Shown here: positions 9,221 through 63,969 of the stretch, piece after piece
How the letters are laid out: the number at the start of each line of letters is the position of its first letter
Position numbering within the stretch: the first letter of the stretch is position 1
Assembly: GCA_017398335.1 (NCBI GenBank)
Contig: JAFQGK010000065.1
Span: 9,765-73,764, forward strand
Direction of reading: 5' to 3'
Source: Bacteroidales bacterium
GTDB taxonomy: Bacteria > Bacteroidota > Bacteroidia > Bacteroidales > UBA932
Length of the DNA stretch: 64,000 nucleotides
Notes under the pieces: model-generated
Told to the model about the DNA's origin: nothing
The model's database searches: none
Seen by the model: only the letters and a program-made list of their open reading frames with translations
Program-made: the position numbers and the translations under genes

Positions 9221-9224
9221 AAGT

Positions 9225-9253
9225 CGTCATTGCCGGCGTTACCGGCAATCTCC
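9225..9253. repeat. CGTC-tagged REP-like palindrome
   Basis: CGTC-ATTGCCGG-cgtta-CCGGCAAT-CTCC fills the 34-bp intergenic gap. Confidence 0.65.
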
Positions 9254-28872: not shown

Positions 28873-31800
28873 TCATTTCAAGAGATGACCGAGGAATCTT
28901 CGAGCTGTCTCTTCTGACATCCCGCGACGTCCTGCATAGTCTTCATACTGTCTTTCGCTGAGGCTCCTGATTTCCGGATATGCCGCTTCAGGGTGTATGA
29001 AGATCATTCCGCAGATGCTGGCTTCCGGAGTCATTGCGCAGCTTTCAGTCAGATGTATGCCAAGTCCTTCCTGATTGCAGCAAGAGCATCTGCTGTCGTG
29101 TACCTCATGGTGTGCGGAGCCCTCCAGCATGTGAAGTATGTCTTTTTTCAATGTGTGGTCCGGGCAGCTTGAATACCCTGCAGCCGGTTTGATGACCTTC
29201 AATCCTTTTTCACCGCATGTGCCTTGTGCTGTTAGATCGTCCATGATCTTTCTGTCAAGCCATAATGATGCAGCTTCAGCAAGAGTCATTCTTACCGCTT
29301 TGCCTATCAAGTCTTCATATTTGTTGGAGCATGCCGGACAGCAGCAGCCTTCTTCGTGTGCATCAGCTGCTCTGACGCTTATGGCGAAGCAGCCGAATGG
29401 GGAAGTCCTTCCACTGTCTTCCGGTGCGACAAGGTCGCACAATGATCTTCCTTTGCCGTTTTCTTCCCTCAACATCGGAATCTTGAACTGGCCATCATCT
29501 GTTTTTAAAATGATGTCGTCTCCTGAATTACAAGCTGCGAAGAATCTTGCACCAAGCTTTATCCGGAAATTTCCGACTGCAATCTCATCTTCTGCATCCC
29601 TTTTCAGTTGAATAAGTTCCATCGCTTCAAGGGAATGGCTTCCATATCTCACTCCCCAGATGGCGTAGAACATCTTCCAGTCGAAGAAAGGAAGAATCTC
29701 CGATGCAGGGATTTCCATAATGGGGATGTCGCATGGCAAGCATGAAGTATAGCTTTCCAATGCGTATTTTACTCTGGATATTTCAGGACTTTCAGTCTTG
29801 TCCGTTTCTTTCATATACAATCTCCGTAGTTCTTCCTGTCTTATATGTTCTTCTTTTTCAAATGTTTCAGGATCCATTACATATCTCTTTGCCATGACAG
29901 CAGCAGACGAGGCATCCGGACCGTAATAGGTGTGGTTGTATATAGGAGCCAGTTTTACCGCCGTATGAACAGCCGATGTCGTAGCACCTCCGATGAACAG
30001 TGGTGTTGACATGTTTCTGGCCGCCATTTCCCTGCATATGTCTTCCATCTGGTAAAGGGATGGTGTTATGAGACCGCTCACAGCTATTATGTCGGCTCCA
30101 ATTCTTTCTGCTTCCGAAAGGATTGTATCCCTGTCTACCATGACGCCGAGATCATGAACTTCGAAACCATTGCAGTTCAGCACTATACCGGTTATGTTCT
30201 TGCCAATGTCGTGGACGTCACCCTTGACGGTGGCAATGACGATTCTTGGTCTGGTTCTGGACTCCTTTATCTCAGATTCCATATATGGTTGAAGGATGTC
30301 GACGGCATCACGCATGACCTTTGCAGATTTTACAACCTGAGGCAGGAACATCTTTCCTTCTCCGAACATTCTGCCCACAGTCTCCATGCCTTCCATCAGG
30401 GGACCTTCGATTATTCCGACCGCCTTTCGGCCTCCTTCCATAGCCTCTGTCAGGTCAGACTTCAGGTTGTCTGACCGTCCTTTTACTATAGCATTCTTCA
30501 GACGTTCGTTTACGGGAAGCTGAATTTCTGAGGATCGGATTGCAATGGAATCTTTGTCTGAATCCTTTGCAGCCATCATTTCGGCGGCTTTCCCGATAAG
30601 TCTTTCCGTCGCATGGACGTCAACATCGAAGATGACGTCTTCCACACATTTTAGGAGTTCCGGTTCTATTTCATCATATACCTGAAGCATCGAAGGGTTG
30701 ACTATGGCCATATCCAGACCGGCCTTGATTGCATGATACAGAAAGGCGGAATGCATGGCTTCGCGCACGGCATTGTTGCCTCTGAAGGCAAATGAGAGGT
30801 TGGAAACTCCGCCGGAAGTCAAGGCTCCCGGAAGGTTTGCCTTGATCCATCTTACAGCTTCTATGAAATCGACTGCATATCTGGAGTGCTCGGCTATTCC
30901 TGTTCCTATGGAAAGAATGTTTACATCGAATATTATATTCTCAGGAGTGATTCCGGCTTCTTCTGTGAGCAGTCTGTATGCTCTGCCGCAGATCTCTATC
31001 TTACGGTCGAATGTTGTAGCCTGTCCTTCTTCATCAAAGGCCATGACCACCATAGCCGCGCCGAATGTCTTTATGGTTCTTGCCTTTCTGACGAATTCTT
31101 CCGGGCCTTCCTTGAGGCTTATCGAGTTGACGATACATTTGCCTTGGGCGTTCTTCAGACCGGCCAGAATCGTTTCCCAATGTGATGAGTCGATCATCAA
31201 TGCCGCTTTGGCTACAGATGGGTCGTTGGAAACGTATCTGACAAAACGCTCCATTTCCATTGTACTGTTAAGCATAGCATCATCCATATTTATGTCGATG
31301 ATAGACGCTCCGTCCTCAATCTGTCTGGCCGCAATGGAAAGAGCCTCGTCATATTTTCCTTCAGATATCAGCCTTGCAAATTTTCTGGAACCGGCCACAT
31401 TTGTCCTTTCGCCGATATTAGTGAAGTTATTTGTCTCTATATCAATGGATACTGCTTCCAGACCACTTACTGTCAGCTTGGTGCATTTCGTCCCTGCAGT
31501 AGCTTGACGTGGGGCAATTCCATTGAGTGCCGCTGCTATAGCCTTTATATGTTCAGGTGTCGTACCGCAGCAGCCTCCTGCGATGTTCAGCAGGCCTTTG
31601 GATGCAAGTTCCCGGAGCTGTCCGGCCATCTCTTCAGGTTTCTGGTCATAACTTCCCATTTCATTCGGAAGTCCTGCATTAGGATAGCAGCTTATGCCGC
31701 AACTGCACCATTTTGATATATCTTCGATCAGCGGAGCCATTTCTGAGGCACCAAGCGAACAGTTCAAGCCGAACGCAAGGATAGGGTAGTGTCTGATTGA

Positions 31801-32571
31801 TGTATAGAAAGCCTCAAGTGTCTGTCCGGTCAGTGTCCTTCCGCTTCTGTCACCGACTGATACAGAAATCATTACCGGAATCTTGCTCCCGTCAGGGAGA
31901 GGTTGGATGATGGAACCGGCATTTTGCCATCCCCGGCTAGGGGAAGGGGCCCAGCCCGGCTGGGAAGGGGCCGGTGTAGTCACCAACCCCTCCCGGACGA
32001 GGCCCTGAATGCCGTTCAGTGCGGCTTTTACATTCAGAGCGTCAAAACATGTCTCGATAAGGAGAAGGTCGGCACCACCTCTCAGCAAGGCCTCAGCCTG
32101 CTCTCTGTATGCCTCCTGCATCTGCTCAAAACTGTAGGGCCTGTATGCCGGATCAGATGCGTCAGGTGATAAAGACAGTGATTTCGATGTAGGCCCTATG
32201 CTTCCTGCTACCCATACCTTCCGTCCAGTGCTTTTCATATAGCAGTCAGCTGCCTCGCGTGCCAGTCTCGCGCCTTCATATGCCATCATCCCGGCAAAAT
32301 CCTCACAACCGTACTCTGACTGGGATATGCGGTTGGCGCTGAATGTGTTGGTCTCGATGATATCTGCTCCGGCTTCAAGATATTCCTTATGGATGGACTG
32401 GATTATGTCAGGACGGGTAAGGTTAAGACATTCGTTGTTACCTCGAAGCTCTTTCGGACAATTCTCAAAAGGCCCCGTATGGTAGTCATCTTCCTTCAGT
32501 CCATATCTCTGGATGACAGTGCCCATGGCACCGTCCAGAATCAGAATCCTGTCTTTGGGAATTGATATCAT
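28873..32571 (-). CDS. metH: Cobalamin-dependent methionine synthase
   Basis: Motifs LDGAMGT, GGCCGTTPEHI, IGERTNV, DVHDIGKNI, GYSSCPDH. Confidence 0.95.
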   Translation of the reverse strand: MISIPKDRILILDGAMGTVIQRYGLKEDDYHTGPFENCPKELRGNNECLNLTRPDIIQSIHKEYLEAGADIIETNTFSANRISQSEYGCEDFAGMMAYEGARLAREAADCYMKSTGRKVWVAGSIGPTSKSLSLSPDASDPAYRPYSFEQMQEAYREQAEALLRGGADLLLIETCFDALNVKAALNGIQGLVREGLVTTPAPSQPGWAPSPSRGWQNAGSIIQPLPDGSKIPVMISVSVGDRSGRTLTGQTLEAFYTSIRHYPILAFGLNCSLGASEMAPLIEDISKWCSCGISCYPNAGLPNEMGSYDQKPEEMAGQLRELASKGLLNIAGGCCGTTPEHIKAIAAALNGIAPRQATAGTKCTKLTVSGLEAVSIDIETNNFTNIGERTNVAGSRKFARLISEGKYDEALSIAARQIEDGASIIDINMDDAMLNSTMEMERFVRYVSNDPSVAKAALMIDSSHWETILAGLKNAQGKCIVNSISLKEGPEEFVRKARTIKTFGAAMVVMAFDEEGQATTFDRKIEICGRAYRLLTEEAGITPENIIFDVNILSIGTGIAEHSRYAVDFIEAVRWIKANLPGALTSGGVSNLSFAFRGNNAVREAMHSAFLYHAIKAGLDMAIVNPSMLQVYDEIEPELLKCVEDVIFDVDVHATERLIGKAAEMMAAKDSDKDSIAIRSSEIQLPVNERLKNAIVKGRSDNLKSDLTEAMEGGRKAVGIIEGPLMEGMETVGRMFGEGKMFLPQVVKSAKVMRDAVDILQPYMESEIKESRTRPRIVIATVKGDVHDIGKNITGIVLNCNGFEVHDLGVMVDRDTILSEAERIGADIIAVSGLITPSLYQMEDICREMAARNMSTPLFIGGATTSAVHTAVKLAPIYNHTYYGPDASSAAVMAKRYVMDPETFEKEEHIRQEELRRLYMKETDKTESPEISRVKYALESYTSCLPCDIPIMEIPASEILPFFDWKMFYAIWGVRYGSHSLEAMELIQLKRDAEDEIAVGNFRIKLGARFFAACNSGDDIILKTDDGQFKIPMLREENGKGRSLCDLVAPEDSGRTSPFGCFAISVRAADAHEEGCCCPACSNKYEDLIGKAVRMTLAEAASLWLDRKIMDDLTAQGTCGEKGLKVIKPAAGYSSCPDHTLKKDILHMLEGSAHHEVHDSRCSCCNQEGLGIHLTESCAMTPEASICGMIFIHPEAAYPEIRSLSERQYEDYAGRRGMSEETARRFLGHLLK
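31890..31999. mobile_element. MITE/RPE-like palindromic element inserted in frame in metH
   Basis: Terminal inverted repeats CGTCAGGGAGAGGTTGGATGA / TCACCAACCCCTCCCGGACG; GC-rich interior; encodes an extra ~35-aa Pro/Gly peptide. Confidence 0.7.
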
Positions 32572-62538: not shown

Positions 62539-63969
62539 ATGAAAAGAGGATTTCTAATCGTTTTGCTCTCTGCTGTTGTCGGAGGGTTGACATCTTTTGT
62601 TGTTGTCAGGAATATGACAGAAAGTCAGACACAGGTTGTCCAGACTTCTGAAGGTGCCCAGTACAGAACCGTGAATCTGACTCAGGACAACTGGCCTGAT
62701 TTTACATATGCTGCAGAATCTGCAGTTGATGCTGTCGTTTATGTCAGGGTAAAGGCTACAGAATCAGGTCAGGCAATGCCTAATTCTATATTTGACTTTT
62801 TCTTCGGTATGCCACAGGGAACCCCTCAACCTCGAGAGAAGGTCGGAAGCGGTTCTGGTGTAATAATCCGAGAAGACGGATATATAGTGACAAACAATCA
62901 TGTGATTGAAGGTGCGACTGAGATCGAGGTTACTCTCAATTCAAATCAGACTTATCCGGCTACTCTGGTCGGAACGGATCCGGCTACAGATGTGGCTCTT
63001 CTCAAGATTGATGCTTCCGGTCTGCCGGTCGTACCGTTCGGTGACTCTGACAAGCTCCGTCTCGGAGAGTGGGTGATAGCCATCGGTTCCCCGTATGATC
63101 TTCGTTCCACCATTACTGCAGGTATCGTAAGTGCAAAGGGACGTTCGATGCCGAACTATACAGGTGAGTTCAAGATCGAATCATTCATCCAGACTGATGC
63201 AGCCGTGAACCCTGGCAACAGTGGAGGAGCTCTTGTGGACAAATCCGGCAATCTGGTGGGAATCAACACCGCAATCATTTCAAAGACAGGGTCTTATTCA
63301 GGTTATTCGTTTGCGGTCCCTTCCAACATCGTAAAGAAGATTGTATACGATCTGATGGATTTCGGAAGTGTGAAGAGAGCCATACTCGGCATCACCATGC
63401 AGGAAATTGACGATAAAATAGCGGAGGAGTTGAAACTTTCTTCAAGAAACGGCGTATATATTGTTGAGGTTTCTAAAAGTGGAGCAGCCGACAAGGCCGG
63501 TGTTCAGAAGGGTGACGTACTTATAGCCATTGACTCTACGAAGATTACGACATCTTCTTCAGTGCAGGAGGCTGTAAGCAGATTCTCTCCAGGAGACAAG
63601 GCTGTTCTTACCATTTTACGTGAAGGAAAGGAGAAACATCTGGATGTTACATTCAAAGGTACTTCTCAGGAAAACGGAACTCTCGCAGAAGATGGTTCTG
63701 TAGCGTTCTATGGTTCGTCAATCAAGGAGGCTTCAGAAGAAATTCTCAAAAGATATGGTTTGAAGAACGGTGTCGAAATCGTTGAACTCGGACCAGGCAA
63801 ACTGAAGGAAGCCGGAGCTACCGAAGGATTCATCATCCTTTATGTAAACGATCAGGCTGTCAAGACTCCGCAGGATATCATCGATATCGTCAAGAAGTCA
63901 AAGCGTGCTGTCTTCGTCGAGGGTATCACTCCATCCGGAAGAACAGGCTACTTCGGTTTCGGAGTATAG
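62539..63969 (+). CDS. htrA: HtrA/DegP serine protease with two PDZ domains
   Basis: Motifs GSGSGVII, TNNHV, TDVALLK, NPGNSGG. Confidence 0.92.
   Translation: MKRGFLIVLLSAVVGGLTSFVVVRNMTESQTQVVQTSEGAQYRTVNLTQDNWPDFTYAAESAVDAVVYVRVKATESGQAMPNSIFDFFFGMPQGTPQPREKVGSGSGVIIREDGYIVTNNHVIEGATEIEVTLNSNQTYPATLVGTDPATDVALLKIDASGLPVVPFGDSDKLRLGEWVIAIGSPYDLRSTITAGIVSAKGRSMPNYTGEFKIESFIQTDAAVNPGNSGGALVDKSGNLVGINTAIISKTGSYSGYSFAVPSNIVKKIVYDLMDFGSVKRAILGITMQEIDDKIAEELKLSSRNGVYIVEVSKSGAADKAGVQKGDVLIAIDSTKITTSSSVQEAVSRFSPGDKAVLTILREGKEKHLDVTFKGTSQENGTLAEDGSVAFYGSSIKEASEEILKRYGLKNGVEIVELGPGKLKEAGATEGFIILYVNDQAVKTPQDIIDIVKKSKRAVFVEGITPSGRTGYFGFGV

Follow-up and report, generated by a model that had tools for sequence, protein, structure and literature searches.

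The window analysed here is a whole stretch of 64,000 nucleotides of Bacteroidales DNA. On its minus strand (28873..32571) it carries an intact metH gene, recognized by its ORF and Pfam matches, which encodes a cobalamin-dependent methionine synthase of 1232 amino acids with all five MetH Pfam domains (S-methyl_trans, Pterin_bind, B12-binding_2, B12-binding and Met_synt_B12). Within this ORF, at positions 31890..31999, we find a 110-bp GC-rich imperfect palindrome. The block is bounded by inverted repeats, as the original prediction (made from the letters alone) had claimed: the two outer arms, 17 nt each (31890..31906 and 31983..31999), are 88% complementary, and an inverted-arm search at the block gave 2 matches against 0.07 expected by chance. 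An inner ACCGGC/GCCGGT pair (31915..31920 and 31970..31975) and a direct repeat, GGGAAGGGGCC, occurring twice in the block, had also been noticed, and both are present. Enclosed by the inner pair are two hairpins, one at 31930..31944 (TCCCC, a GGCTA loop and GGGGA on the plus strand) and the other at 31950..31964 (CCCAGC/CCG/GCTGGG).

The reading frame is kept through the block, which translates as ...VREGLVTTPAPSQPGWAPSPSRGWQNAGSIIQPLPDG... and codes for MetH residues ~192-228. The extra residues that had been suspected are confirmed: the element contributes about 32-35 residues that human MetH (4CCZ) does not have, query residues 197-231 standing opposite only 3 residues there, and the segment is missing from the MetH of 22 of 24 relatives in a multiple alignment. 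A six-frame search of 40 relatives found a MetH match in 25, and nearly all of these alignments break at residues ~189 and ~229. The metH gene of RGIG8473 (copy L087) has an orthologous insert with a canonical core, and that of genome G002 a decayed one. The arms of the present copy and of L087 are clearly related, with paired changes between them (GGTTGG/CCAACC versus GGCTGT/ACAGCC). When the element is deleted from L087, the remaining spacer resembles that of the empty alleles; all 110 bp, including the arms, are therefore an insertion. Empty-site metH alleles exist, as had been anticipated, and no target-site duplication is seen in the metH filled/empty comparison. The empty allele of genome G013 is placed among the filled alleles in a MetH tree, owing either to a loss or to weak resolution of the tree. 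The spacer of this same allele (L009) is ~6 residues longer (EMDKNSRSV) than that of the other empty alleles and may represent a scar left behind by imprecise loss.

Where does the insert lie in the protein? An AlphaFold2 run on MetH residues 1-390 with 25 aligned relatives gave a pLDDT of 85.7 and a pTM of 0.86, and pLDDT fell below 50 only at residues 199-228 and at the last four residues (387-390). The model places residues 199-228 between a helix (178-193) and a strand (233-237), so that the mapping onto structure bears out a low-confidence loop between an α-helix and the next β-strand. In a TIM barrel, loops that lead from a helix to the next strand lie on the face opposite the catalytic strand ends. 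For the insert loop we take this to be the face of the homocysteine-binding barrel away from the zinc site and the invariant Cys271, Cys334 and Cys335. Since the segment is predicted to be disordered, connects a helix to a strand and faces away from the catalytic ends, the insert is most likely, as far as a model can indicate, a tolerated, disordered surface loop.

Is the block one of a kind? A BLAST search of the genome with the full 120-nt element as query returned only the query itself; a 19-nt piece of it matched five other loci and so revealed a family. Six canonical copies came out of a pattern scan of the genome. An nhmmer profile made from 74 copies, with the metH row excluded, recovers these six together with a copy in the shikimate kinase gene (E 3e-5) and the metH copy (E 8.5e-4, whole genome). 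The present genome thus has 8 copies, four of them in frame (MetH, MurB, ArgC, AroK). The shikimate kinase copy (G000:C24:69190-69380) belongs to subfamily B, has a mutated core, CCCCTACCCGGGGGTGGGAAAATGCC, and is orthologous to the AroK insert L066.

The family core, CCCCTAGCCGGGGGTGGCA, is almost invariant. From the outside inward, the layout comprises long locus-specific arms, an asymmetric internal loop (TCC/TCC), a 5-6 bp helix of GTGAC/GTCAC type (P1b) and, inside P1b, a variable GC hairpin (P2), the invariant ACCCCC-TAGCC-GGGGGT hairpin (P3) and then GGCAYG. Read linearly, canonical loci consist of an arm, TCCG, the GTGAC-type helix, CCCC, the variable GC hairpin, ACCCCC-TAGCC-GGGGGT, GGCAYGTC, the partner of the GTGAC-type helix, CTMC and the second arm. 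Only a core of ~45-60 nt is conserved, while element length ranges from 88 to 163 nt. The arms are unique to each locus, their ends vary among copies, and BLAST searches with the arms found no second source of arm sequences in the genome. No relevant Rfam 15 match was found at E<=1 for six loci, including the metH locus. The members of one subfamily (L061, L091, L095, L132 and L147; copies 24, 56, 60, 99 and 114) have P2 replaced by a conserved insert of ~70 nt that reads …CTGC(T/C)GCCGCAGGCTGTTCGC…GCCCACTGGGCTGTTTGC…; among these, L132 lies in frame in ArgC. A divergent variant, GGGGCTGGCACG, occurs twice in tandem, 97 nt apart, at L055 (G064:C81:8902-9019).

The metH element has P1b, P2 and P3 in family order, together with its long complementary outer arms of 17 nt. 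By alignment with 74 family members, the entire element (31890..31999, minus strand) is a subfamily B copy, and its core orientation, CCCCTAGCC..., is that of the metH coding strand. The ACCGGC/GCCGGT pair aligns as the counterpart of the GTGAC-type helix (helix 2 of the family, which covaries in 4 of 6 pairs), and the hairpin at 31950..31964 as P2, whose helix 3 also covaries. The hairpin at 31930..31944 is P3, nearly invariant among 75 aligned copies; against the canonical form (ACCCCC-GGCTA-GGGGGT), the outermost C-G pair has become T-A in the metH copy, with both sides changed. The core match has 1 mismatch to CCCCTAGCCG(G/T)GGGTGGCA. The subfamily B signature TTTTGCCA (31922..31929; GGCAAAA on the coding strand) is shared with copies L066 (AroK), L069, L078, L086, L087 (MetH) and L129, and the best alignment of the metH copy has the subfamily reading GGCAAAATGCC after the core.

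We examined how widely the core is distributed among genomes. With a 21-nt core and up to 2 mismatches, 17 of 101 genomes of the genus carry it, at 1-19 copies each, and the reversed-pattern control gave 0. Among 150 genomes drawn at family level, which represent 37 genera, single matches with 1 mismatch appeared in only one other genus. A public scan for the exact core, with one genome per GTDB species, found at least 117 stretches; among the matches listed, all but one come from Candidatus Cryptobacteroides or from uncultured Bacteroidales/Bacteroidia, and their sources are ruminant and other animal guts. The exception, a Nonomuraea match, is probably due to chance. A scan of IMG/VR for the core gave 0 matches. 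From related genomes we gathered 121 distinct copies, which answers the doubt whether the block might be single-copy. The hairpin repeat family of gut Cryptobacteroides is previously undescribed; literature searches found no Bacteroidales or Cryptobacteroides equivalent. We consider it probable that the metH block is one copy of this lineage-specific, non-autonomous palindromic repeat, and that it entered metH in the ancestor of a few Cryptobacteroides species.

The original prediction had inferred a repeat family in this lineage that adds peptides to core enzymes, and this inference held up well. Copies fall in both classes, intergenic and coding, and the share of elements within genes is 16-50%. 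Ten gene families contain in-frame copies verified by Pfam: MetH (the present genome and RGIG8473), MurB (two different sites, three species), ArgC, AroK and TruB (two species each), PrmC and SufD (three species each), ApbE and a cytidylyltransferase (one copy each) and, probably, glycerate kinase (one copy). On each strand, the invariant core has TAG in one of its three frames, and the coding copies read the TAG-free frames (e.g., HPLAGGGMS, PPSRGWH, MPPPARG). Both orientations relative to the genes are found among them. In TruB and PrmC, the same loop holds elements of opposite orientation with different arms in different species, while the orthologous MetH copies, and likewise the SufD copies, differ by compensatory changes in their arms. 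In coding regions, the survivors would be those copies that keep the frame open and happen to fall in tolerant loops.

If the arms change in compensation, is the fold itself under constraint? We counted pairs explicitly over four named helices in the 75-copy alignment. (RNAalifold, run on a MAFFT alignment, gave only an alternative C5/G5 pairing without the variable helices, and was replaced by this counting.) Paired cells amount to 77%, against 61% in shuffles (0/500 reached), both sides have changed in 25 of 32 pairs, and the covariation score is 0.395, compared with 0.153 for shuffles and at most 0.213 for slid partners. Beyond the conserved part, the outer arms contribute a median of 17 further Watson-Crick pairs. 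With the core oriented as written, arm mismatches are A.C in 54 cases and G.T in 18, so that the complementary strand tolerates wobble pairs. On this complementary strand, cGNAg is the reading of 31 of 89 distinct P2 loops, and many more are of the form G..A; such loop motifs are exceptionally stable in DNA hairpins. The wobble bias and the GNA loops suggest that the strand that folds is the one antisense to metH (the plus strand of the window). We infer that the constrained form is a folded single strand, probably DNA.

Intergenic copies sit almost only at the 3' ends of genes: their flanking genes are convergent in 44 cases, tandem in 29 and divergent in 1. The ends of the outer arms carry an A-run...T-run in 16 cases and the reverse in 1, as in bidirectional terminators. 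(Looking for A/T runs immediately beyond the arms gave no information, since the runs belong to the arms; the test was redone on the arm ends.) Could the family then be chiefly a host cis-element, that is, a terminator, mRNA-end hairpin or protein-binding site comparable to REP/BIME or SPRITE, maintained by selection and with the coding copies as rare tolerated accidents? The 3'-end location and the run asymmetry are what one would see in that case, as are a core that is invariant across species and helices that covary; at one orthologous site, moreover, genome G111 has a plain hairpin where the present genome has the element. Indeed, an identical core across species with 20-30% protein divergence is explained equally well by purifying selection for a host function and by recent spread. 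Yet a terminator inside MetH, MurB, ArgC, AroK or SufD would harm expression, and the core and its pairing are kept there. Nor is a host function easily reconciled with 0 to 19 copies among congeners, with orthologous sites that are filled or empty by species, or with sets of near-identical inner units at different loci of one genome. We regard this explanation as unlikely, though it deserves to be kept in mind.

Returning to the reading of the family as a spreading repeat, how might the locus-specific arms arise? In two intergenic filled/empty comparisons, the arms are absent from the empty site and no target-site duplication is seen. Related copies within one genome have the same inner arm (10-20 nt), and the outer parts by which they differ are palindromic all the same; orthologous copies in the present genome and L128 have the outer arm and flanks in common and entirely different inner arms and P2. 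The element may spread, or be renewed, in the form of a folded single strand, the one complementary to the core as written. On the simplest reading, the unit would consist of the core plus inner arms, copied into the apex of an existing palindrome, either a terminator or the arms of an older copy; alternatively, conversion seeded by the core may swap the inner part. Landing at an apex would explain both the locus-specific outer arms and the inner units that appear to have been exchanged at some orthologous sites. At the empty intergenic sites examined, there was no earlier hairpin that matched the outer arms, and the idea of hairpin targeting consequently rests only on comparisons between copies. 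For the recently duplicated copy L067, a synteny search gave no empty site, and its left flank is not conserved.

We found no mobilizing enzyme, and a transposase with matching ends, as originally envisaged, did not turn up. ORFs resembling Y1 transposases (PF01797-like) occur in 67 of the 101 genus genomes with no visible correlation with the presence of the element, and none was seen next to an element copy. Inverted pairs of copies ~700 bp apart (L050, L076) were considered as transposon ends; they flank a nitroreductase-like gene and SufD, with no transposase. A hairpin-homing type of element, with a folded single strand bearing cGNAg loops, landing at palindrome apexes and constrained at the nucleic-acid level within essential ORFs, is thus a possibility that we offer tentatively and would not yet bet on. 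If it is true, housekeeping enzymes carry segments in which the constraint acts on DNA or RNA structure and not on the protein, and the inner unit could be exchanged or inverted where it sits (compare the opposite orientations in TruB and PrmC).

Does the extra peptide reach the MetH protein? The element is spanned without gaps in contigs of independent DNA studies and of two metatranscriptome libraries, with the caveat that RNA libraries can contain DNA. In run X5, one contig of low similarity has 57 nt in place of 156 nt across the metH site; its source is probably a related organism whose allele is empty-like, and the contig is too short for interpretation. A strongly conserved folded structure with stable loops might be expected of a small intron, a ribozyme or a translational bypass, by which the element would be removed at the RNA or translation level and MetH made without the extra peptide. 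Such removal is very improbable: no Rfam match appeared at E<=1, the frame is open through the element in all Pfam-verified coding copies and the TAG frame is never used, both orientations relative to the genes occur, the contigs from the RNA libraries of two runs are contiguous with no joint that skips exactly the element, and the strand indicated by the wobble bias is the one antisense to metH. The MetH element is most likely transcribed and translated with its gene, translation being inferred and not observed. Finally, a lineage-specific expansion of the MetH loop with a merely fortuitous palindrome, or an artefact of assembly, could appeal to the full 120-nt query being single-copy by BLAST and can practically be ruled out, given that the profile search and alignment assign the block to the family, that another species has an orthologous canonical-core copy in its metH (L087), and that contigs of four runs from three independent studies carry the element.

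The presence of one repeat family in at least ten enzyme families has several uses. The element marks loops that tolerate ~35 extra residues in MetH, MurB, ArgC, AroK, TruB, PrmC and SufD, and it is a sharp lineage marker in metagenomes. It also provides a natural case in which constraints of nucleic-acid structure and of coding overlap, and it poses a tractable question: what recognizes the invariant core?

How does the family compare with known systems? The insertion sequences IS1397 and ISKpn1 target the loops of REP sequences, and class C group II introns insert after terminators. The inferred preference of our element for the apex of existing palindromes would resemble these hairpin-targeting systems; unlike them (they are autonomous and code for proteins), it has no known coding capacity or partner enzyme. 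It resembles MITEs, including the terminator-like SPRITE and the Correia and ERIC elements, in being small and non-autonomous, folding back on itself, lying sometimes within genes and being sometimes terminator-like (PMC10969869, PMC2229807). The features of MITEs, namely conserved terminal inverted repeats, target-site duplications and often a parent IS, were not found. The suggestion that the block represents a MITE family accordingly falls: with only the core conserved and the arms locus-specific, and without target-site duplications, this is not a classical MITE.

With REP/BIME sequences and the REPINs associated with RAYTs (PMC3733652), the family shares hairpins repeated at gene ends, and in both it is probably single-strand folding that matters. 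It differs in its length (~100 nt versus 20-40 nt), its three-helix architecture, its occurrence inside ORFs and the lack of a conserved GTAG/CGTC end tag, and no link to a RAYT has been shown. The traits that define REPs are thus lacking, as are those that define MITEs. CGTC ends had been proposed as a trait of the element, in common with an intergenic repeat at ~9225, but they are not a family feature, and the proposed kinship is wrong because that repeat belongs to a different, far more abundant, REP-like family. Members of this second family (one at 9222-9250 of the window) read (C)GTCAT, a 6-7 nt stem, CTTGA/CCTGA, the complementary stem and ATC; at up to 4 mismatches there are at least 83 copies in the genome against 0 for the reversed pattern, and the stems covary. 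They fit the CGTC-tagged palindromic repeats described earlier (PMC3733652). A 306-aa ORF with a weak PF01797 match (G000:C40:63122-64556) has two inverted copies of this repeat ~1 kb away, and the two may form a RAYT/REP pair. At L198 (G082:C8, ~62900-63100), four tandem units of the CGTCAT repeat occupy an intergenic site that holds the palindromic element in the present genome.

The closest parallel is with the Rickettsia palindromic elements (RPEs), which are likewise palindromic, ~100-150 bp long and multi-copy, occur both between genes and in frame in unrelated housekeeping genes, and add their peptide at positions compatible with the fold (PMC10969869). There are clear differences. The hosts of RPEs are obligate intracellular Alphaproteobacteria, whereas ours are gut anaerobes of the phylum Bacteroidota; the Cryptobacteroides family conserves only a ~45-60 nt core and has locus-specific arms instead of conserved terminal repeats; and it uses two reading frames and both orientations, with its intergenic copies at gene 3' ends. 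Since the matches are Bacteroidales MAGs and no RPE reference sequence was compared, kinship is not shown, and we describe the element, by analogy, as one that works like an RPE and not as a member of that group. A 2024 review presents RPEs as the most extreme example known and only speculates on their occurrence elsewhere (PMC10969869), and the in-frame colonization of core enzymes has so far been regarded as a peculiarity of Rickettsia. The same phenomenon is now found in free-living, abundant gut and rumen Bacteroidales, with hairpins kept by compensatory substitutions, and this gives a second, independent system in which to study how proteins tolerate or exploit palindromic inserts.
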